From: a virus | Strand: one strand, 5' to 3' | Virus genome (UHGV): UHGV-0108244 | DNA: 45,507 bases | Shown: positions 10,949-40,115 of the stretch, piece after piece | Numbering within the stretch: position 1 is the first letter of the stretch | How the letters are laid out: each line of letters begins with the position of its first letter | Made by a program: the position numbers and the translations under genes | The notes under the pieces: model-generated | Database searches by the model: none | What the model saw: only the letters and a program-made list of their open reading frames with translations | Told to the model about the DNA's origin: nothing

Positions 10949-11023
10949 GGGTCGATCGTATAAAGGTCATTACGGCAGGCTGTTAACCTGCTTATCGTGG
11001 TTCGATTCCACGTCGTCCCGCCA
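10949..11023 (+). tRNA. tRNA, probably Asn (anticodon GTT)
   Basis: Manual cloverleaf: acceptor GGGTCGA/TCGTCCC, T-arm CGTGG-TTCGATT-CCACG, discriminator then CCA. Confidence 0.6.
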
Positions 11024-11029
11024 AATTAC

Positions 11030-11105
11030 GGAGCTCTGGCGTAGATGGTTCGCGCGGATGCCTGAAGAGTATCAGGAGATGGTTCGATTCCATCGGGCTC
11101 CACCA
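11030..11105 (+). tRNA. tRNA, tentatively Phe (anticodon GAA)
   Basis: Acceptor GGAGCTC/GGGCTCC, T-arm GATGG-TTCGATT-CCATC, CCA end. Confidence 0.5.
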
Positions 11106-11110
11106 AATTA

Positions 11111-11186
11111 GCCGGCTTAGCTCCAATGGTAGAGCAGTCGCCTTGTAAGCGAATGGGTAGCGGTTCAAGTCCGTTAGCCGGCACCA
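11111..11186 (+). tRNA. tRNA, probably Thr (anticodon TGT)
   Basis: Acceptor GCCGGCT/AGCCGGC, anticodon loop CTTGTAA, CCA end. Confidence 0.6.
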
Positions 11187-11191
11187 ATTCA

Positions 11192-11268
11192 GCGCCATTA
11201 GCTCAACCGGATAGAGCAATAGCCTTCTAAGCTATCGGTTTCAGGTTCGAGTCCTGAATGGTGCACCA
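11192..11268 (+). tRNA. tRNA, probably Arg (anticodon TCT)
   Basis: Acceptor GCGCCAT/ATGGTGC, anticodon loop CTTCTAA, T-arm TCAGG-TTCGAGT-CCTGA, CCA end. Confidence 0.6.
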
Positions 11269-25931: not shown

Positions 25932-26105
25932 ATGCAAGACGTACTCTATACCGGCCGCAAGAACGACAGTTTCCAGCTTCGTCTGCCAGAGCGAATGAAG
26001 GAGGATATCCGGCGCTTAGCTGAAATGGATGGGATTTCGATTAACTCTGCAATTGTGCAGCGTTTGGCAAAAAGCCTGCGTGAGGAGCGCATGAATGGTC
26101 AGTAA
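25932..26105 (+). CDS. arc: Arc-like RHH repressor, 57 aa
   Basis: FQLRLPERMKEDIRRLAEMDGISINSAIVQRL matches P22 Arc FNLRWPREVLDLVRKVAEENGRSVNSEIYQRV. AAGGAG SD. Below the ORF-track threshold. Confidence 0.65.
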   Translation: MQDVLYTGRKNDSFQLRLPERMKEDIRRLAEMDGISINSAIVQRLAKSLREERMNGQ

Positions 26106-26799
26106 AAACGACGAAGCCCTAACTACTTGCGATAGTCAGGGCTCCTTATCGAACAAATCCCGGAAAGGAAATATCGACATGATTATTGTACAGAACAAAG
26201 AGCTAAGTTTCCACAATACCAATTTTTCATATATGGAAATGGGCGGTCAGGTCTGGCTTACGGCTGCTGAGGTTGGTCAGGCTCTGGAGTACGCTGACGA
26301 TAAAGCCGTGCAGCGCATCTACTCACGCCATGCTGATGAATTTACAGCACAAATGACAGGGGTGGTCAAACTGACCACCCCTTCAGGAAAGCAGGAAGCG
26401 CGCGTTTTTTCTCTGCGTGGCGCCCATCTTGTAGCGATGTTTGCTCGCACGCCAAAGGCCAAAGAGTTCCGCCGCTGGGTGCTGGATATTCTGGATCGGG
26501 AAATGGCGCATTCGCCGATTGCGAAGCAGTTCAGTGACGAAGAGCTTTGCTCTCTGGCATGGTTATGGCGGGCCAGCGACGTCATGCTCAAAGCCTGCAA
26601 TAGCGTAACACCTTTACTGAGAGTGGCAGAGCATCGCCAGGCGGGACACTTTCATTCAATCGGTCAGGAGTATCCGAGGTCGATTAACAAGGCAAGAGAA
26701 GTGATTAAGCGCGAGACAGCGCATATCGAATTTCACCCATGGAAGGATGATAACTGGAGCAGGGTATTACCGCACCTGCGTCAGGAGATGTTGCAATGA
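26095..26799 (+). CDS. ant: Antirepressor with Bro-N domain (Ant-like). Start may be 26095 (coupled to the arc stop) or 26179.
   Basis: LSFHNTNFSYMEMGGQVWLTAAEVGQALEY Bro-N signature. Confidence 0.65.
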   Translation: MVSKNDEALTTCDSQGSLSNKSRKGNIDMIIVQNKELSFHNTNFSYMEMGGQVWLTAAEVGQALEYADDKAVQRIYSRHADEFTAQMTGVVKLTTPSGKQEARVFSLRGAHLVAMFARTPKAKEFRRWVLDILDREMAHSPIAKQFSDEELCSLAWLWRASDVMLKACNSVTPLLRVAEHRQAGHFHSIGQEYPRSINKAREVIKRETAHIEFHPWKDDNWSRVLPHLRQEMLQ

Positions 26800-26868
26800 T
26801 GCATAAATAGAAAAGCCGACAGTTCGCAGCTGCCGGCTATCCATAAATCTGTCATAAGGGTCCAACTA

Positions 26869-27621
26869 ATGACTTCATTAAATTTAGCACCAAAAAGCAG
26901 TGTTGTCACCGATAAAACCATTGATAGCCAGTCTTTGCTGATGATGGTTAATCAGGCTCGCAAGCAGTGCGGGGAGCCAGAGGTACGCAACAATAAGTTC
27001 ATTGAAAAAGTAGTCGACGAACTTGATGGGGAGTTTTACACAAAAAGTGTAAAACCCTCCGGCACCAATGGCGGCCGTCCTGTTGAGGTAATTGACATGA
27101 CGATCAAGCAGGCCCTTCGCGTGGCGGCCCGTGAGTCTAAAGCTGTTCGCCGCTCTTTGGTTGATAAGCTGGAAGACATGCAGGCTATCCAGGTGCCTAC
27201 TAAAAGCACTTCAGGACTTACTGAATACCGGCTTGCCAAAGCTGAACAACTCAAAGCTCAGGCGCTGGAGAAAAACATCGCATCGGCCCGTGAGCTGATG
27301 TCAATGTTCCCGCGGCTTGGTGAATCGGCTAACCAGGTGATCGTTGCCACCCTTGTTAACCCACTTCTCGGCCACGAAGTTGTGCCACTGCCGGCGATTG
27401 AAGAGCATTACTCAACGGCGGGTGAAGTAGCGGCGCAGCTCGGTTGCACTGCGAACAAGATCGGTCGCGTAGCCAATAAACACAACCTGAAAACTGAGCA
27501 GTACGGCAAGTTCTTTCTGGATAAGTCGAGACACTCAGATAAGCAGGTTGAGGCGTTTCGCTACAACGCCGAGGGAGTTCAGGCACTTCGCCATCTGATT
27601 AACGGTGCTGATGTTGCCTAA
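26869..27621 (+). CDS. Second regulatory protein, Rha/KilAC-antirepressor-like
   Basis: Weak resemblance to the Rha N-terminal pattern. Sits in the same island. Confidence 0.35.
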   Translation: MTSLNLAPKSSVVTDKTIDSQSLLMMVNQARKQCGEPEVRNNKFIEKVVDELDGEFYTKSVKPSGTNGGRPVEVIDMTIKQALRVAARESKAVRRSLVDKLEDMQAIQVPTKSTSGLTEYRLAKAEQLKAQALEKNIASARELMSMFPRLGESANQVIVATLVNPLLGHEVVPLPAIEEHYSTAGEVAAQLGCTANKIGRVANKHNLKTEQYGKFFLDKSRHSDKQVEAFRYNAEGVQALRHLINGADVA

Positions 27622-27927: not shown

Positions 27928-28001
27928 CGCTGCGGCGGGTTTTGTCGTATCGCTCCCCCTCTGCTACGATTGCCGCATCATTTACTGATGGGGATAGGGA
28001 T

Positions 28002-28403
28002 ATGAAACGCATCACGGCAGTGGCATTGCTTTCTCTCGCGTTAACCGGTTGCTATAAGTCCGCGCCAACTGAGCAAGAGGCGATCGATACGGCTAAAAAA
28101 GAAGTATTGATGGCTGTATGCGGTGATAAAAACAATAGTTGCGTAGATATTAGCGGTGGGAATGCACATGTCGCTGATCGAAGAAATGACAATACCAACC
28201 AAGTTACTGTTACTTTCAAAACAATCAAAGCCAATGGTGACGCACAGAAATCAAATGCTGTAAACGTAGATGCAGGCATGGTGGTCTACGACTTCGACGC
28301 CAAAACAGGTGAGACGTACATTAAACAACTTTCGCTCTGGTCCGATGATGGCAAGCACTCTATAGAACTATGCGGACATGATTATAAGTTTTGTCGAAAG
28401 TAA
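28002..28403 (+). CDS. Lipoprotein moron (signal peptide MKRITAVALLSLALTGC). Candidate superinfection-exclusion lipoprotein.
   Basis: Lipobox LTGC. AT-rich. Bracketed by hairpin terminators. Confidence 0.6.
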   Translation: MKRITAVALLSLALTGCYKSAPTEQEAIDTAKKEVLMAVCGDKNNSCVDISGGNAHVADRRNDNTNQVTVTFKTIKANGDAQKSNAVNVDAGMVVYDFDAKTGETYIKQLSLWSDDGKHSIELCGHDYKFCRK

Positions 28404-31127: not shown

Positions 31128-31149
31128 GGTTTTTTAATGGGTGAATATT

Positions 31150-31329
31150 ATGAAAGTAGCAATCGAAGTGAATGGCGAGGTTATCTGGTACCGCGACAGC
31201 GATAAACAGGAGGGGGTGGCGTCGTTGGGCTACTTGAAGGACGGCACACAGCAGAAAATCATTGCCGCCCTTGAGGAGGCTTTATTCCAGGCGAAAGGGC
31301 AGATGCTATTGCCTGATTACGTTGATTGA
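31150..31329 (+). CDS. Small hypothetical protein, 59 aa
   Basis: ORF. Its 3' end overlaps the convergent gene by 24 nt. Confidence 0.35.
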   Translation: MKVAIEVNGEVIWYRDSDKQEGVASLGYLKDGTQQKIIAALEEALFQAKGQMLLPDYVD

Positions 31330-31572
31330 ATATCTGTATGTAGCGCGATGCCCGGCAGGGAGAGCCAGAACGACATTCCAGTGACCGGAGTGCGGCACCA
31401 CAATGTTGGCAGGAAATTGTTTATAGAACCCTCCGTAGACCTTGCAACTTTCACCTCGCTTATATCGGTTATAAGCAGCGTCATCCATAACAAGGACGTT
31501 GATTTGGTGGGAGCACTGAACGGAAACTATTGATCCTCCCTCCATGTAATCCCTGCTGTGCGTGTAAGACAT
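31306..31572 (-). CDS. Opposite-strand moron, hypothetical 88 aa protein
   Basis: AGAGAGG SD. AT-rich. Convergent with 31150..31329. Confidence 0.45.
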   Translation of the reverse strand: MSYTHSRDYMEGGSIVSVQCSHQINVLVMDDAAYNRYKRGESCKVYGGFYKQFPANIVVPHSGHWNVVLALPAGHRATYRYSINVIRQ

Positions 31573-32632: not shown

Positions 32633-33024
32633 CGCAAGACGAATTTATCCGGCTTGTTACCGGCAAGCCTTGGGCTAACCGCTCCTGCAGTTTTGGCTCG
32701 ATGGATTGTTGGGCGCTGGTTGTTCTGTATTACCGGCATGTGCTGGGAATTGAGTTGCACCATATTCCAGCGTATGAAGCCGGGGCTGACTTCATTACTT
32801 GCCATGAGCAGGAGGTGGAGCATTGGAGAACGATACCAGCAGCGGTGTCGGGTTGCATTGCGGTTTTCTATCGTGGTGAAGTCCCGGCGCATATTGGCGT
32901 AATGACAAGCCCCGTTAAGTGCCTGCATTCCCGTGGGGAGTTTGGTTTCGTGCGCAGCGACAACCCGCTGGCGCTTCTTAAAGTATACAGCCGCGTGGAG
33001 TATATGGTGCATGGTTCGATATGA
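32629..33024 (+). CDS. NlpC/P60 cysteine peptidase tail protein (gpK-like)
   Basis: Conserved Cys (SMDCWALV) and His (HIGVM). Confidence 0.7.
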   Translation: MTQDEFIRLVTGKPWANRSCSFGSMDCWALVVLYYRHVLGIELHHIPAYEAGADFITCHEQEVEHWRTIPAAVSGCIAVFYRGEVPAHIGVMTSPVKCLHSRGEFGFVRSDNPLALLKVYSRVEYMVHGSI

Positions 33025-35482
33025 ATTACAACGCCTTCCTGGCGCGCCAAAGCATCGTGGAGTTGCGGAGGAAGGAACGCCGCTAGCTGAGTTACTTGAT
33101 TCTCTGAATTTGCACAATGATGTGGTAGTTAAGCTTAACGGCAGAGAACTTGATGACGACTTCGAGATAACTTATCCGCTGTGCAGAAATGATGTAGTCC
33201 TTATATTCGACCAGCCTGAGGGTGGGGTAGGGAAACTGATCAACACCATATTACGACCGGTCACAAAAATTCTCTCTGGCGCAATGAAATTGCTCGGTCT
33301 TGCACCAAAATCCGGAGGCGTTTCTGTTGCAACTGGAGAGTCGCCCAACAATGATGTCACCCAGCAGACCAACCGGGCCCGTCTATATAAAGGGAGGCCG
33401 AATATTTATGGTCAAGTACGAGCCTATCCAGACCTCATACAGGAATCGATGTTTGAATACATCAGTAATAATAAAATGGTTACAGAGTGGATGGAGATAG
33501 GCTATGGACACTACAATATTTCATCAGTGCGTTATTCCGAATCTTCTCTGGTAGCTATGGCCGGCGCCAGCTATGAAGTTTATCATCCAGGCACGGTAAT
33601 ACCAGAGATTATTCAGGGATATGCCTTTGACGATGTTGATGGGCAGGAGCTTCCTGGCACCAACGAGCAGACATCAAATATCGTTAATCAAGCCACGACG
33701 AATAATTTGCTGGCTGGTAGTTTCGCTGGAGGCCAGTTTTATGCAAAAATTGAAAAACAAAATGAGTTTGATGTTTTCTATGACTCTCCAAAACCATTTT
33801 CGGTCACAATCACTGTAAATGTGTCATATAATACAGCCAGTGGGCTGGTAACAAAAAACATTAATGTATCTGCTAGTTTGTTTAACTCTGCGCTATCAGA
33901 TGATGGGACACTTATCGATCCGCAACAATTCTATGAGTTTTGGTTTAACTATTTGTCTGGTCCAGACTTTGAGGGATTGCCAGCAGACGCCACGGTAAAC
34001 AGCACTCTTTTCACTCTGACTCAGTATTCGACTATTGCGGTTGGGCCATTTTTTGCGGCGCTCCCTGGTGATCAGCTTTGGGTGCACCTCTACGCGAATG
34101 AAGCTGGCGGATATGACGGGCCTGCCCGTATCACATGGTGGCAGGTCGACACCGATAACAACCAGATACCTGGTACCGAAGAGAGCATTGATGTAAACGT
34201 GCATAACGATGGAGGCAATCAGGATTACATTTACCGGACATACAAAATAACACCAGGTGCGGGTTTTGGACGTTATGCCTTTAGAGCTGAGCGAACCAAT
34301 AACTCGGCCAGCAACTCAGTGCTGTATTTGTCCGGCGCGCATGCTGTAACCATCCGTAAAAACGTAGTATATACCGATGACACAATTGTCAGGGTCACTG
34401 TCAGACAGACGGAAACACAGACTGTAGCGTCAGATCGTAAATATAACTGTCTTGTGCAGAGGAGGGTCATATCATGGACGCCAAGCGGCATTGACTTTGC
34501 ATTGCGGCCCAGCAGGTCATTTGCTGACGCCGTACTACATGAGTGGGTGATCATTGGCAAACAGGATCCATCCAGGCTTGATTTACCTTCGCTTTACGCC
34601 ATTAAAGACTCGCTGCCAGATGCTCAGCTAGGTTATTTTGACTGGACATTTTCCGATGAAAATCAGCCGCTAGGTGAGCGAATACAGACTATCTGTAACG
34701 TAGCTCGCGTTAATTTTAACTGGATCGGTGATGTTCTTACGTTCTGGCGTGATGAAAGGGTTTCTAACCCAGATGCGGTTTTCGCCCGTTCGAATATGTT
34801 CTGGGAAGATTACAAGTTGTCATGGAAAATGTCTTTACCTGGTGGGTATGACGGCGTGACGCTCGACTACGTCGACCCTTCAACTAACAAAAAGACCTAC
34901 ATATACCTAAGCGTGGGCACCTCCGGAATAAGTGAAGTTTCCGACGCTACTGTTAACGCGATGCAGATCAGCCTGGACGGCTGCCGCAACGCCACTCAGG
35001 CAACCGATCGGGCCTGGCTTGAGGCGAGGAAAATCCTTTACTCACGCCTGACCATGACAGTGAAAGTGCTGGAGTCGACGCAGGTGGTGCGCGGTACGGT
35101 GGTTCAGTGTCCGGACATGTACGACAACGCGCAGCAAACCGGCTACATCACAGGGCGATCCGGGGATGTGTTCTCGACCTCTGAACGAATCGACTTTTCC
35201 CTCGGCGATATGTGGGTGGTGATGACCGACAGCCTCGGAAATTACCGCGGGCGCTGGCGAGCTTATCCGGTAAGTGGCAAGCCCAAAGCATTCCAGGCTG
35301 CAGCCGATACCTTCGATCTGAACATTTATGACCGCAGCAGGGTGCAAAACCCCAGCCGGTATTTCATCGCTACCGACTCGGAACTCAACTCCACAATCTG
35401 GCGCGTCGATAGCGCAAAACCAAACGGTGACGATACTCAAACGCTATCCCTGACTGAGTATTCAGACTCGATTTATCAGTAA
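33011..35482 (+). CDS. Tail-tip host-specificity protein (TipJ/gpJ-like with gpI-like N-terminal region)
   Basis: 823 aa. The N-terminus resembles lambda I. Follows the NlpC/P60 gene. Confidence 0.55.
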   Translation: MVRYELQRLPGAPKHRGVAEEGTPLAELLDSLNLHNDVVVKLNGRELDDDFEITYPLCRNDVVLIFDQPEGGVGKLINTILRPVTKILSGAMKLLGLAPKSGGVSVATGESPNNDVTQQTNRARLYKGRPNIYGQVRAYPDLIQESMFEYISNNKMVTEWMEIGYGHYNISSVRYSESSLVAMAGASYEVYHPGTVIPEIIQGYAFDDVDGQELPGTNEQTSNIVNQATTNNLLAGSFAGGQFYAKIEKQNEFDVFYDSPKPFSVTITVNVSYNTASGLVTKNINVSASLFNSALSDDGTLIDPQQFYEFWFNYLSGPDFEGLPADATVNSTLFTLTQYSTIAVGPFFAALPGDQLWVHLYANEAGGYDGPARITWWQVDTDNNQIPGTEESIDVNVHNDGGNQDYIYRTYKITPGAGFGRYAFRAERTNNSASNSVLYLSGAHAVTIRKNVVYTDDTIVRVTVRQTETQTVASDRKYNCLVQRRVISWTPSGIDFALRPSRSFADAVLHEWVIIGKQDPSRLDLPSLYAIKDSLPDAQLGYFDWTFSDENQPLGERIQTICNVARVNFNWIGDVLTFWRDERVSNPDAVFARSNMFWEDYKLSWKMSLPGGYDGVTLDYVDPSTNKKTYIYLSVGTSGISEVSDATVNAMQISLDGCRNATQATDRAWLEARKILYSRLTMTVKVLESTQVVRGTVVQCPDMYDNAQQTGYITGRSGDVFSTSERIDFSLGDMWVVMTDSLGNYRGRWRAYPVSGKPKAFQAAADTFDLNIYDRSRVQNPSRYFIATDSELNSTIWRVDSAKPNGDDTQTLSLTEYSDSIYQ

Positions 35483-35568: not shown

Positions 35569-37752
35569 ATGGCAGAAGTACCGTTACCAACTCCAACCGA
35601 CAACCCGGTACCCAGCACTGATATCCGGGACGCAGTTTATGCAGGCGCCATGCTGGATAAAGTTGTCACCAGTACAGAGCTGACATACACCGATCGCCTC
35701 GGCGGAGAGCACTACACCGTAGACGGAATTAAGGCGGAAGGGGATAAAGTCGTTGAAGAAACGCGACAGAACCTGATCCCTCTTAGCCGGCAGTATATGA
35801 CCTTAGCGGAAGCGCAAGCGGATATCGCTAATATTCCAGAAGGCAGCAGCACCTATGTGCGTAGCCAGGACAGCAGCGCGCTGGCTGACGAGTACATGAA
35901 TGTGGCTGGGACGCTGACAGCAACCGGGCGTAGAATGCCTTCTCAAGCGGCCATCCAGGCAGTTCTTGACTATATCTCATCTCTCATTGCTACTGATGAT
36001 GCTGATTCTCCTTTACTGACACTTAATGATGAGGCGGGGTTTCGTCTGGCGGCATTCGGCCTGAATGCAATTCAGAGCAATGCGATGACGGCTGAGTATG
36101 ATGAGTTTATTGATGGTTTTGTGTTCCGGGATAGCGTCGGATTCGTTATTCAGCAAATAGGGGCTCCTCTGCTCAGCTCTGTTGACAGTGTTCAGCCTGT
36201 CGTTGAGCAGCAGCGATTGGTGACTGAGGCATTCAGTGCTGAATCTGACGCGGATATTTCTGGTTTTGTATTTCGCGACAGTGTGGGATTTGTCCTGATG
36301 AATCTCAATGGTGAGCAAAGCGATCAGAATAACGATGGGGGAGATGACATTTCACGCAGAAATGCAGCAAATCTGGCCGCTGCTGCTGCCGCACGAGACG
36401 AAATTAATACGCGTATTGCTCGGCCGGTTTACGATTACAATATTCTGATCACAGACGGCCAGTCGCTGAGTAACGGGAATGAGGGATGGGCTGCACTGAG
36501 CAAGGACATTCGCGCTACTCTGAACATTAATATGCTCGGTGACTCCGTCCGGCCAAAAAATGAGAATGGTTCAACATTTACGCCGTTGAACGGAGCTGAA
36601 ATCAGATCAGCCCGTGCGGTGGTGCAGGATTTAATCGCCCCTCCTGACGGCGGAAACCTTATGACCGATGAGGCTGTGGCCGCACTGCCTCGTGGGGCTA
36701 ACAATTTCGGTGAAACCGTCGATATTGGCGCGATGTGGATGTGGCGGGAAATGCAGTTACAGTTCCGGGGAGTGGTAACGGATGAGCGCAAAATTGTGGC
36801 TGTGAACTGCGGTGTGGGCGGGCAGATTATTGAACATCTCTCTAAAGGCCATTCCTGGGGATTCTACAACCGGATCATTTCAGCCGTTACCCAGATTAAA
36901 GCCATTGCTGATGCCGAAGGTAAAACCTGCGGCGTGGTGGGTTTTTTATATCTTGGCAATGAATATAACTATGACAGCACAAAAGGAGGGGCGACAGACC
37001 GCGCAGAATACAGAGCACTCCTGAGAAAGCTCATTGATGATGTCATTACCGATACTACCGCTATCACCGGGCAGACAGAGCCCCCCCTGACTGTGCTGTA
37101 TCAGACCAGCGGCAGCTGGACGCGCGACAGCACGAATATGAGCATTGGCGAGGCTCAGCTCGATATCTGTGCAGCAGATGCAAACGTAATGATGGCATCA
37201 CCGGCGTATGCTGTCACCGACAAGGGTGGCCATCTTGACGCGAACGGCTACCGCTGGCTGGGAATGCAGTTCGGAAAAGTGCTCCATCGTGCAATTGATC
37301 GTCGCCAGAACTGGCGTCCACTGCAACCCCTGTCAGTCACGCTGAGCGGAACATTCCTGCGTGCGGATTTCCTGGTGTGGAGCCCGCCGCTTCAGTTTCG
37401 ATCATGCTACGTGGGTTCATCTCCGACGACGTATGCCGCAAAAGGATTCAGAGTCACTGACGATGCCGGGGACGTTCCGGTGACGCGTGTCGAAATTGTA
37501 GCCGATACCGTAGTCGATATTACGCTGGGGCGTGAAACGACCGGCGATGTTTATCTATGGTACGCCAGCCAGACCGGAAGTAACGGTAACGGAAATCTGT
37601 TTGACAGCGACACAACGGTCGCTGTTGCGAATTACGAATTTCATGAAGGGACAGGGCAATATCCGGAATCAAATATTCCAGAGCTGGTAAACCGTCCATA
37701 CCCACTGAATAACCCCTGTGTGGCATTTCGTCGCCAGGCAATCGCTATTTAA
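35569..37752 (+). CDS. Tailspike/tail fibre protein with SGNH/SASA-type carbohydrate esterase domain
   Basis: NILITDGQSLSNG (GQS block I) and GGHLDANGYRWLG (DxxH block V). Internal duplicated GFVFRDSVGFV segment. Confidence 0.6.
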   Translation: MAEVPLPTPTDNPVPSTDIRDAVYAGAMLDKVVTSTELTYTDRLGGEHYTVDGIKAEGDKVVEETRQNLIPLSRQYMTLAEAQADIANIPEGSSTYVRSQDSSALADEYMNVAGTLTATGRRMPSQAAIQAVLDYISSLIATDDADSPLLTLNDEAGFRLAAFGLNAIQSNAMTAEYDEFIDGFVFRDSVGFVIQQIGAPLLSSVDSVQPVVEQQRLVTEAFSAESDADISGFVFRDSVGFVLMNLNGEQSDQNNDGGDDISRRNAANLAAAAAARDEINTRIARPVYDYNILITDGQSLSNGNEGWAALSKDIRATLNINMLGDSVRPKNENGSTFTPLNGAEIRSARAVVQDLIAPPDGGNLMTDEAVAALPRGANNFGETVDIGAMWMWREMQLQFRGVVTDERKIVAVNCGVGGQIIEHLSKGHSWGFYNRIISAVTQIKAIADAEGKTCGVVGFLYLGNEYNYDSTKGGATDRAEYRALLRKLIDDVITDTTAITGQTEPPLTVLYQTSGSWTRDSTNMSIGEAQLDICAADANVMMASPAYAVTDKGGHLDANGYRWLGMQFGKVLHRAIDRRQNWRPLQPLSVTLSGTFLRADFLVWSPPLQFRSCYVGSSPTTYAAKGFRVTDDAGDVPVTRVEIVADTVVDITLGRETTGDVYLWYASQTGSNGNGNLFDSDTTVAVANYEFHEGTGQYPESNIPELVNRPYPLNNPCVAFRRQAIAI

Positions 37753-37764
37753 GGAAAACAAATT

Positions 37765-38499
37765 ATGGGTTCGCGTATTATTGTTCCGGGTTATTTTGGT
37801 GATAAAGGCCTGGGTTTTGACCCGCTCGTTCGCCGTGGCCTGAAATATTTGAATTTTTATGGAGAGGCAGATAAAACCGGTCGAAACCTCGCACCGGATG
37901 GGGTAGCTGCAACGGTACTGGGTTCGCCTGTTGTGCAGGAAAATGGCGTCCAGTTTACGCCTGCAGGCACATTGCTTGATACGGGTATTCTTCAGCCTCT
38001 GGACTTTACTTTTTTCACAATCTTCAACTGTCCGACCCTTTCACAGATTCTGCTGCTCAGCAATTTTAACGGGCCCCGGCAATCTGGCTCAGGAACCACG
38101 CAGGGCGTAGTGCTCAGAACGCAGCCTGGATCTACCAGCATGACCCTGAACTTTTCGGTAAACACTCTCAACGGTAGCGTGTCGACGCAGCGTACAGTCG
38201 CGCTCGGTGGGTTGCTGGCAAACACAAACTATTTAGTGTGCGCGCGTTTTAAATCGGGACAAAAAATGGACTTTCAAATCCTGAACAAAGCTCTGTCAGC
38301 AGAGAAAACAACAGATATGGGCGACCCGGCGGATTTGGGGGCAAAACTGCGTATCGGCGGTAGTTACCAGGCTGATCTAACGAACGCAGGGATTCACCGA
38401 TTTTCTGCTTTACACACTGTTGCGTTGACAGATGATGAAATTACAAAAGCCGCCACTCAGTGGATGGCGTGGGCTAAGGCTGTAGGTGTTCCGCTCTAG
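37765..38499 (+). CDS. ConA/LamG-like lectin-fold tail-associated protein
   Basis: YLVCARFKSG...LRIGG pattern typical of Laminin_G_3. Confidence 0.45.
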   Translation: MGSRIIVPGYFGDKGLGFDPLVRRGLKYLNFYGEADKTGRNLAPDGVAATVLGSPVVQENGVQFTPAGTLLDTGILQPLDFTFFTIFNCPTLSQILLLSNFNGPRQSGSGTTQGVVLRTQPGSTSMTLNFSVNTLNGSVSTQRTVALGGLLANTNYLVCARFKSGQKMDFQILNKALSAEKTTDMGDPADLGAKLRIGGSYQADLTNAGIHRFSALHTVALTDDEITKAATQWMAWAKAVGVPL

Positions 38500-38517: not shown

Positions 38518-38724
38518 GTGCTGGATATCTCCCTGAAGCCAAAGCAGGGAAGTCAGGTTCTGATCCAGCACGGCGGCGGGACGGAACTTGCCACATTGAG
38601 AGGAAAGTCGCTGATTACCGAAGATGGTGAAGCGATCGAGGGTGAAGCCCTGGACAATGTTACTGTCATCGGCATCGTGACGTTTACTATCTGCGATGTG
38701 CGCCAGGACAATGCGGTTATTTAG
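38518..38724 (+). CDS. Small hypothetical protein
   Basis: ORF. Confidence 0.3.
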   Translation: MLDISLKPKQGSQVLIQHGGGTELATLRGKSLITEDGEAIEGEALDNVTVIGIVTFTICDVRQDNAVI

Positions 38725-38951: not shown

Positions 38952-40115
38952 TTACGCAAGTTTCAAACCAGCCTGATTTCCTCCTTGTGTCGTATTTGTG
39001 TCGCTAGCGCCAAAAATGGCGTCAATTTTCCGTGCATGTTCGGTCAGGTGGTTCGGTGCCAGGTGAGCATAACGACGCACCATCTCGATGCTTTCCCATC
39101 CTCCCATTTCCTGTAAAACAGAAAGCGGGACGCCGGACTGGATCAGCCAACTCGCCCAGGTGTGCCGAAGGTCGTGAAAACGGAAATCCTCGATCCCCGC
39201 TTTTTTCAACCCGGCGCGCCAGGCGTTATTGTCATCCACCCGCATTTTTCTAACTGCGGGCGTTAGTGTTCCATCCGGGCGATGTTTTGCCGTGGTGTGA
39301 ACGAACACCCATCGGGAGTGCTTCCCTATCTGATCCCTTAATACCCTGCATGCGGTATCATTCAGAGCTACGCCTATCGCCTTGCCCGCTTTTGCGTTCT
39401 CCGGATTTACCCATGCAACCTTTCTCTGCATATCGACCTGCTGCCACTCAAGCCCGATGATGTTTGAGCGGCGCAGGCCGGTTGCCAGTGCAAATATCAC
39501 CACTGGCTTAATGCTCTCCGGCATGCACTCGATCAACCGCTCAGCTTCTTCTCTGGTCAGCCACCGTATCCGCTTACTGATCGGCTTGCGGGTTTTGATA
39601 ACAGGGGCTGTTTTTATCCAGCCCCAGTCATTCGCCGCGGCCCTGAGAAGGGAGCGAATGAAGGAAAGGTGTTGAGCCTTCGTAGCCTGCGAAACCTGCC
39701 GTGGTTTGTACTCCGGAACCGGCTTTCCCTTCCTCATCGCGGCATCACGCTTACTCTCCCAGACCTGCAGGTGTTTACGGTTGATCATCCCGTTAACGGC
39801 TTCGTGAACTTCCTCCGCCGTTATCTTCGAGACATCACGGCCGGAAAAATGCTGCAGCCAAAACTCAATTTTGGTTTTGTCATCATCCAGCGATCGCTTA
39901 TGGTCCTTTTCCCGCAACCACCGGATACAGCATTCTTCGAAGGTTCTGACGGGCAGATCGCCGATCTGGTCAACCCGCCACGCTTCCGCCTTCAGCTTGT
40001 CGTGGAGCTCCTGAGCCTGCTTTTTGTCCCCCGTGCCAAGAGATCGCCTAACTCTTTTTCCTGACGGCGTAAAGAAATGACAGTGCCACACGCCGCCCCT
40101 GAGGGTGATTGACAT
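38952..40115 (-). CDS. int: Tyrosine integrase
   Basis: [39 protein letters not shown] (R-H-R-Y catalytic set). Confidence 0.95.
38984..39008. repeat. attP P'-arm: two TTGTGTCG copies (inverse of the P-arm repeat) within the int 3' end
   Basis: Read directly from the sequence. Confidence 0.45.

Follow-up and report, generated by a model that had tools for sequence, protein, structure and literature searches.

At positions 35,569 to 38,499 of the virus genome UHGV-0108244 (45,507 nucleotides; this whole stretch of DNA is referred to below as the window), two adjacent genes encode proteins of 727 and 244 amino acids, and the question they raise is whether they form a single device with which a phage recognizes and modifies the polysaccharide surface of its host. 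An earlier note, made from the letters of the window and a list of its open reading frames (ORFs), had described the first protein as a tailspike carrying an SGNH/SASA esterase domain and the second as a LamG/ConA-like protein; both ORFs, the two esterase motifs and a repeated peptide lie where that note had placed them. Our analysis indicates, with a probability that we put at roughly three in four, that a temperate siphovirus-type Klebsiella phage uses the products of the two genes as its receptor-binding device, consisting of a deacetylating esterase fibre and a LamG-like subunit. The features on which this reading rests are the following.

35569..37752, + strand: tail-fibre receptor-binding protein with esterase domain, 727 amino acids (ORF; phrog_4201 'tail fiber protein', E 2e-212).
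36421..37308, + strand: SASA/CE20-like SGNH acetylesterase domain, about residues 285-580 (AlphaFold2 model, Foldseek, profile matches, Pfam SASA matches of relatives).
36463..36465, + strand: codon of Ser299, the predicted nucleophile (block I, G-Q-S-L-S; falls on Ser31 of 2apj).
37231..37233, + strand: codon of His555, the predicted general base (block V, D551-K-G-G-H555-L-D557; immediately ahead of the domain's final helix).
37321..37752, + strand: C-terminal beta-sandwich domain, about residues 585-727, with the stop codon (all-beta segment 315-453 of the model; aligns to its equivalent in Pan3 gp14).
37765..38499, + strand: partner protein, 244 amino acids, probably a LamG/ConA-like beta-sandwich (ORF; phrog_4390; gene coupling).

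The earlier note had proposed structure prediction as a check on the esterase. An AlphaFold2 (AF2) model of residues 271-727, the 457 C-terminal residues of the fibre, shows a confident SGNH fold (predicted local distance difference test, pLDDT, 96.5; predicted template modelling score, pTM, 0.95), with an alpha/beta domain at about residues 285-580 followed by a beta-sandwich at about 585-727. Comparison of this model with the PDB by Foldseek returned the tailspike of phage Pan3 (9vyh, 8.6e-22) and the CE20 founder XAC1771 (7kmm, 3.6e-13) at the top, and further down the mammalian sialic acid esterases 8f9p (5.7e-12) and 8f9o (about 1e-11), 2apj, 1zmb and the CE20 enzymes 9ega and 9h4u; the Foldseek probability of 1.00 to CE20, SIAE, 2apj and 1zmb identifies the alpha/beta SGNH fold. 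At E <= 0.001 the family of residues 271-727 comprises 2668 cluster representatives with highly varied N-terminal parts, and its profile matches 9vyh_m (8.7e-10), the Arabidopsis SASA-type esterase 2apj_A (1.6e-4, with GQS on Ser31) and NanS. We counted conservation in an alignment of 67 relatives with 35-50% identity to the window fibre; 39 of them match Pfam SASA (E <= 0.01; best 1.4e-9). G297, Q298 and S299 are conserved in 65-66 of the 67 (Ser299 itself in 65), H555 and N559 in all 67, the block II glycine G418 in 65 and E465 in 64. Loss of the catalytic Ser and His among relatives, which the earlier note had named as grounds for giving up its esterase, is thus not what we find, and because both residues are kept across relatives this distant, block I (ILITDGQSLSNG, residues 292-303) and block V (GGHLDANGYRWLG, residues 553-565) are not chance matches. 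Block I reads G297-Q298-S299-L-S, which is of the G-Q-S-N-M type, with a nucleophilic Ser, that defines the SASA/CE20 branch (PMC12313940). Taken together, fold, profiles and conservation place the C-terminal module in the SASA/CE20-like SGNH branch, as the note had claimed. As a separate observation, a chain of about 1190 amino acids from the tail complex of phage N4 (PDB 9lc0_N, 9yf5_LA) is also a Foldseek match of this model (1.8e-5), which hints that N4 too may bear a SASA-like domain on a tail appendage.

A nearly identical fibre has already been assayed. Among the receptor-binding proteins of Klebsiella prophages, fibres with an SGNH domain rank with the most frequent (Otwinowska et al., PLoS Biol 2026, PMC13123978), and two such fibres, 164_08-KL2 and 174_38-KL55, hydrolyse p-nitrophenyl acetate (pNPA) and depolymerise none of 118 K-types (PMC13123978). 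The first of these, 164_08 (717 amino acids, WP_232162347.1, annotated SASA PF03629 and 8F9O-like), is the predictor for KL2 by genome-wide association analysis (GWAS; PMC13123978). Our comparison with it rests on its first 399 residues, as printed in the supplement of that paper, which BLASTP aligns to residues 30-409 of the window fibre with 87% identity; the differences are clustered before residue 66, with only 3 in residues 270-409. The two proteins share the shaft, both copies of the repeat GFVFRDSVGFV, block I and the start of the catalytic domain, whereas their N-terminal anchors of about 60 residues differ (717 versus 727 amino acids in total). For the remainder we infer near-identity by way of the 717-amino-acid relative P0119, which has the same anchor as 164_08 and is 95% identical to the window fibre over 698 residues. 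With its phrog_4201 assignment, its match to 164_08 and its setting beside an integrase gene and a siphovirus tail module, the window fibre fits the group of SGNH receptor-binding proteins of Klebsiella prophages. Because the nearly identical 164_08 is an assayed pNPA esterase, the esterase reading is both supported and already published: the finding is correct and known, and its value here is mostly confirmatory, in that it justifies a confident annotation of the 727-amino-acid gene: an acetyl-esterase tail fibre of the KL2-associated type. Since SGNH esterase fibres are very common in Klebsiella prophages, they matter for host-range prediction and for the choice of therapeutic phages.

What our analysis adds concerns the gene that follows, 12 nucleotides downstream of the fibre gene. 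The 244-amino-acid protein has few close relatives, all from Klebsiella, and its two most distant sequence matches (28-30% identity) are each encoded immediately after an esterase fibre that has 34-37% identity to that of the window. We examined the coupling of the two genes in 80 loci from IMG/VR in which the esterase module is present at 41% identity or more. In 77 of these loci the next gene (about 240-260 amino acids) matches the profile of the 244-amino-acid family. The other three (L053, L056 and L080) were considered as exceptions and rejected as such, each having a divergent gene of the same size class (243-279 amino acids) with the same N-terminal pattern, so that by position and size (238-279 amino acids) a partner directly follows the esterase fibre in 80 of 80 loci; in some relatives the two genes overlap. 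Cultured phages carry the pair as well. One is Chronis, whose tail is of baseplate-J type and whose partner is 87% and fibre, from residue 88 on, 60% identical to those of the window; further ones are fLi-Aba02, the Mu-like KS10, Serratia Opt-155, the Autographiviridae member PD-6A3, Vibrio VvAW1 and cyanophage Pan3. These phages, which include those of Acinetobacter, Burkholderia, Serratia and Vibrio, between them have tails of the sipho-, myo- and podovirus types, and their downstream proteins all match the partner profile (E 9e-51 to 7.6e-4).

Fibre module and partner diverge together but at different rates. Across 73 distinct loci their identities are correlated (Spearman 0.78), with partners at 20-37% identity where enzyme modules are at 45-55%; discordant pairs among these loci show independent recombination of the two to be possible. 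The downstream partner is mentioned neither by Otwinowska et al. (PMC13123978) nor in a 2026 Klebsiella preprint, and the universality of the pairing for this fibre family appears to be unstated in the accessible literature. Our results indicate that the short gene behind the fibre gene is part of the device, and catalogues of receptor-binding proteins, GWAS, recombinant expression and structure prediction should take it into account.

The fold of the partner is best seen through its relatives. The 244-amino-acid protein itself has no Pfam match, and neither it nor its relatives reach the gathering threshold of Laminin_G_3 (PF13385; 27.6 bits), but 5 of 32 diverse members of the family match it below threshold (14-22 bits, best E 2.2e-4), over nearly the whole Pfam model (positions 15-150 of 151). 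The best PDB match of the family profile is 4qvs_A, with an E value that improved from 0.044 to 0.0033 when the alignment was widened, and the matched part of 4qvs_A is a true Laminin_G_3 domain (81.8 bits). Protein gp22 of Acinetobacter phage fLi-Aba02, which has Gene3D 2.60.120.200 and SUPERFAMILY SSF49899 ConA-like matches (PMC11058221), also matches the partner profile (hhalign 88.8%, E 2.5e-6; hidden Markov model E 1.8e-10). These comparisons make a LamG/ConA-like beta-sandwich the probable fold of the 244-amino-acid protein.

Several observations weigh against the reading of an esterase fibre with a lectin-like subunit, and we take them here together with the explanations that they would favour. 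The first concerns the substrate. K2 is absent from the K-types listed as O-acetylated in PMC13123978, even though the nearly identical fibre predicts KL2, and the esterase could instead act on a glycan other than capsule (O-acetylated O-antigen, for example), or could serve mainly to destroy the receptor, for release or for control of superinfection rather than for entry. The O-antigen has a precedent in the deacetylase of phage G7C, and the 2026 preprint calls the substrates of SGNH receptor-binding proteins undetermined. We nonetheless consider this explanation unlikely, though it is the most durable of those that we weighed, as the GWAS, corrected for lineage, links the fibre to the K-locus, and SGNH fibres dominate the receptor-binding proteins of prophages over many K-loci. 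Deacetylation of capsule or O-antigen as the adsorption step, as the earlier note had it, is a putative role of the fibre.

The second set of observations concerns the partner, which could be an assembly chaperone of the kind of lambda Tfa or T4 gp38/gp57, helping the fibre to fold and trimerise and absent from the mature virion. A gene 12 nucleotides behind the fibre gene, or overlapping it as in some relatives, is in the classic position of a fibre chaperone. AF2 failed on the 244-amino-acid protein when given 8 close relatives (pLDDT 37.6), and for the resulting model Foldseek found only insignificant jelly-roll matches. The LamG/ConA-like neighbour proposed in the earlier note stands at moderate strength, through sub-threshold Laminin_G_3 matches of relatives, 4qvs_A and fLi-Aba02 gp22. 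Moreover, the two SGNH fibres of PMC13123978, 164_08 among them, were produced and active with no mention of a co-expressed partner, from which it follows that the partner is unnecessary for catalysis. On the other hand, the 244-amino-acid protein has no match of the tail-assembly-chaperone type (Tfa or Caudo_TAP) in Pfam, even at E <= 10, nor in NCBIfam or PHROG; the weak matches of its family are all to a carbohydrate-binding fold; and it evolves faster than the enzyme, as is usual for parts that contact a receptor.

The case for a subunit also draws on Pan3. The second PDB match of the partner profile is 9vyh_q, 'tailspike gp15' of Pan3, from the same entry as the best structural match of the esterase module. 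In the Pan3 genome (ON968454) gp15 (270 amino acids) starts 2 nucleotides after gp14, and entry 9vyh contains gp14 and 'tailspike gp15' in three chains each, which means that the syntenic protein was deposited within the tailspike structure. Scored against two partner profiles gp15 reached 15.2 and 14.5 bits, which none of 5000 shuffles reached, and against a third 11.1 bits, which 1 of 5000 reached. Here too there are contrary signs: gp15 was lost from the database-wide list (E <= 10) after four sequences had been added to the partner profile, hhalign gave a probability of only 8.7% for the partner profile against the single gp15 sequence, and a search of IMG/VR for gp15 relatives from which to build a second profile found none. 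Because the widened profile dropped gp15, we treat the sequence link as weak and let it rest on the shuffle controls. Because this similarity is joined by synteny and by a graded series of intermediates, we regard the 244-amino-acid protein as likely to be one of the components of the fibre complex; that it is a chaperone with a transient role is possible, but we hold this less likely than a subunit and on balance improbable. A carbohydrate-binding partner, as the earlier note had suggested, agrees with the strictness of the coupling and with the Pan3 structure entry.

The third set concerns the active site and would favour an SGNH domain that is catalytically inert and only binds. Pfam and NCBIfam scans of both window proteins gave no match; for the 727-amino-acid protein and its C-terminal part there is no Pfam family even at E <= 1, and the SASA gathering threshold is not reached. 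Block III is G463-N464-E465 in the window fibre rather than the Q-G-E of 54 of the 67 relatives. The Asp residues near His555 are off the canonical DxH or DxxH spacing, D551 lying four residues before it (in 55 of 67) and D557 two after, where Pan3 gp14 reads DFVH. The G-N-E variant occurs in 8 of the 67 relatives (the window fibre and 7 others) and also in Chronis gp23 and the 717-amino-acid P0119; N464 is found only together with G463 (window 36955-36963), a paired swap that suggests a compensated one-position shift of the oxyanion-hole amide. The third catalytic element varies in this clade, bacterial CE20 enzymes having a water-mediated triad and SIAE a Ser-His dyad (PMC12313940), and these relatives function with them. 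With Ser299 and His555 intact, and with 164_08 active on pNPA despite so few differences in the compared part of the domain, an inert domain deserves little credence. Finally, morons typically lie close to the end of a prophage that bears the attachment site, as this gene does, but a 244-amino-acid moron or lysogenic-conversion gene unrelated to the fibre is very unlikely, and the least credible explanation of all, given that the gene lies directly behind the fibre gene in all 80 loci, in lytic and temperate phages of three tail types and whatever follows it.

Returning to the esterase fibre with its LamG-like subunit, we propose that the device would work as follows. The fibre consists of four parts, namely a swappable N-terminal anchor, a shaft with D-x-x-G-F motifs, a SASA/CE20-like SGNH acetylesterase and a terminal beta-sandwich. 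In the predicted catalytic centre Ser299 would be the nucleophile and His555 the base, with Asp551, a water or a backbone carbonyl as third element. On contact with a cell the fibre would strip O-acetyl groups from a surface polysaccharide, most likely the capsule, without cutting the chain, and deacetylation would let the phage bind, traverse or leave the polysaccharide layer. The 244-amino-acid protein, presumably translated from the same transcript as the fibre, would most likely be a fibre subunit, each trimer holding about three copies after the pattern of the Pan3 gp14-gp15 entry, and would add a lectin-like binding surface.

A wider conjecture, which we hold to be doubtful though worth stating, is that all SASA-type esterase fibres, those of cyanophages as much as those of enterobacterial phages and on each of the three tail types, are split 'bind-and-destroy' devices, in which a fast-evolving LamG-like lectin subunit, present at about 3:3 with the fibre, picks the polysaccharide and the slower-evolving esterase strips its O-acetyl groups. 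If this were true, it would be the logic of a haemagglutinin-esterase laid out on two polypeptides, and the host range of these common Klebsiella prophages would be set by an overlooked 244-amino-acid gene at least as much as by the fibre. Current catalogues of receptor-binding proteins score the fibre, and omission of the partner could partly explain why capsule specificity is predicted poorly from the fibre alone.

The part of the fibre in front of the esterase comprises an anchor and a repeat-bearing shaft.

35569..35763, + strand: N-terminal anchor module, about residues 1-65, exchangeable between phages (PDB, PHROG and variant comparisons).
35764..36420, + strand: fibre shaft, about residues 66-284, with repeated D-x-x-G-F motifs (local self-alignment).
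36022-36060, + strand: degenerate repeat copy NDEAGFRLAAFGL, residues 152-164 (self-alignment).
36115..36147, + strand: repeat copy 1, GFVFRDSVGFV, residues 183-193 (self-alignment).
36262..36294, + strand: repeat copy 2, GFVFRDSVGFV, residues 232-242 (25 of 33 nucleotides shared with copy 1).

Residues 8-56 of the fibre match PDB 9occ_G, 'putative tail protein gp13', and residues 1-170 match many PHROGs; because the C-termini of these families are unrelated to one another, we take the N-terminal region to be a modular anchor. Protein 164_08 and the 717-amino-acid variants diverge from the window fibre before about residue 66, and Chronis gp23 before residue 88. The shaft-plus-esterase body is found on at least four N-terminal anchors (variants of 727, 725, 717-720 and 734 amino acids; proteins P0098-P0120), and in Chronis on one of myovirus type. 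Judged from these alignments, the switch points at about residues 60-90 (window 35569-35830) are a putative recombination hot spot that would move one receptor-binding module between tail types. In the shaft, DxxG is repeated in the family consensus, and similar motifs align in Pan3 gp14. The earlier note had described GFVFRDSVGFV as an internal tandem duplication. Two copies are indeed present, with similarity that reaches about 28 residues, but they are not in tandem, lying 49 residues apart, and a recent tandem duplication of DNA is ruled out by this distance and by the low likeness of the two copies at the base level. The repeat also occurs in Chronis gp23 and in 164_08, and the pair is an old shaft repeat conserved at the protein level.

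The surroundings of the pair are those of a siphovirus-type tail module, with genes for a major tail protein, a tape measure protein and minor tail proteins. The gene directly before the pair is the following.

32933..35482, + strand: tail hub or GpJ-like protein, 849-amino-acid ORF (phrog_469 'tail protein', E 3e-240, match from residue 27).

Pfam FNIII-A_GpJ is found on the counterpart of this gene in related loci. The ORF as delimited mechanically has a GTG start and overlaps the preceding gene by 92 nucleotides (32933-33024); because the phrog_469 match begins only at residue 27, translation probably begins instead with the ATG at about 33011. An integrase gene lies downstream of the 244-amino-acid gene on the reverse strand (38952..40115). 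The DNA of the window is 95% identical to Klebsiella phage KpF5, in the annotation of which both genes are 'hypothetical', and the 727-amino-acid protein recurs in K. pneumoniae, where hundreds of genome contigs encode it in identical or nearly identical form and almost always name it hypothetical. A scan for promoters and terminators around both genes gave nothing above shuffled background.

Some further features of the window were seen in passing. Directly after the partner gene, a 68-amino-acid ORF (38518-38724) matches the UmuD-like phrog_3469 only at positions 39-103 of 106, its C-terminal two thirds, and could be what is left of a truncated gene or a small protein in its own right; Chronis gp25, also of 68 amino acids, occupies the same position. 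In the interval that separates the tape measure gene from the tail gene after it (31141-31572), a 62-amino-acid ORF on the + strand is overlapped by an 88-amino-acid ORF on the - strand (31306-31572), one of which may be a small moron inside the tail operon. Two genes for Ant-like anti-repressors (phrog_245 and phrog_1726; 26095-27621) lie inside the tail module next to a 153-amino-acid ORF with no assigned function (27942-28403), all three between the genes that follow the major tail gene and the tape measure gene (28458), an unusual site for regulatory genes. A cluster of four tRNA genes on the + strand (10949-11268) reads Asn-GTT, Phe-GAA, Thr-TGT and Arg-TCT.

Among known systems, the functional precedent cited in PMC13123978 is gp63.1 of E. 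coli phage G7C, an O-antigen deacetylase that is likewise a virion-borne SGNH esterase and deacetylates a surface polysaccharide as the adsorption step. The earlier note had pointed to podovirus tailspikes as its model: the parallel of an SGNH esterase on the virion holds, but G7C gp63.1 is a podovirus tailspike, whereas the fibre described here belongs to a siphovirus-type tail. As gp63.1 is absent from the 50 best Foldseek matches of the window model, it probably belongs to another SGNH branch. The CE20/SASA acetylesterases (XAC1771 7kmm, Fl8CE20_II 9h4u, PpCE20_II 9ega and SIAE 8f9o) share with the window fibre the SGNH fold, a GQS-type block I, the block V His and a beta-sandwich, and CE20 and SIAE enzymes likewise have a non-canonical third residue; they differ in being soluble metabolic or lysosomal enzymes rather than virion proteins and are 12-15% identical to the fibre, and in bacterial CE20 (PMC12313940) the ancillary domain is inserted in the catalytic domain, whereas in the window fibre the beta-sandwich follows it. 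The Pan3 tailspike gp14, the best structural match (hhalign 98%, E 6.8e-14), shares the gene order of esterase spike and then small protein, with both proteins in a solved tailspike entry. It differs in belonging to a cyanobacterial podovirus, in an identity of only 18% and in its canonical block V, and the likeness of gp15 to the partner is weak (about 15 bits). The Acinetobacter siphophages fLi-Aba02 and fLi-Aba03 have the same order of tail-module genes and the same pair of esterase and then lectin-like protein, gp21 (acetylxylan-esterase-like, SASA) being 29% identical to the window fibre (E 6e-17), although their fibre is shorter (620 amino acids), with another shaft and another host, and both proteins are known from sequence. 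The pair in these Acinetobacter phages was noted in 2020 by its discoverers, who called gp21 and gp22 an esterase and a lectin-like protein.

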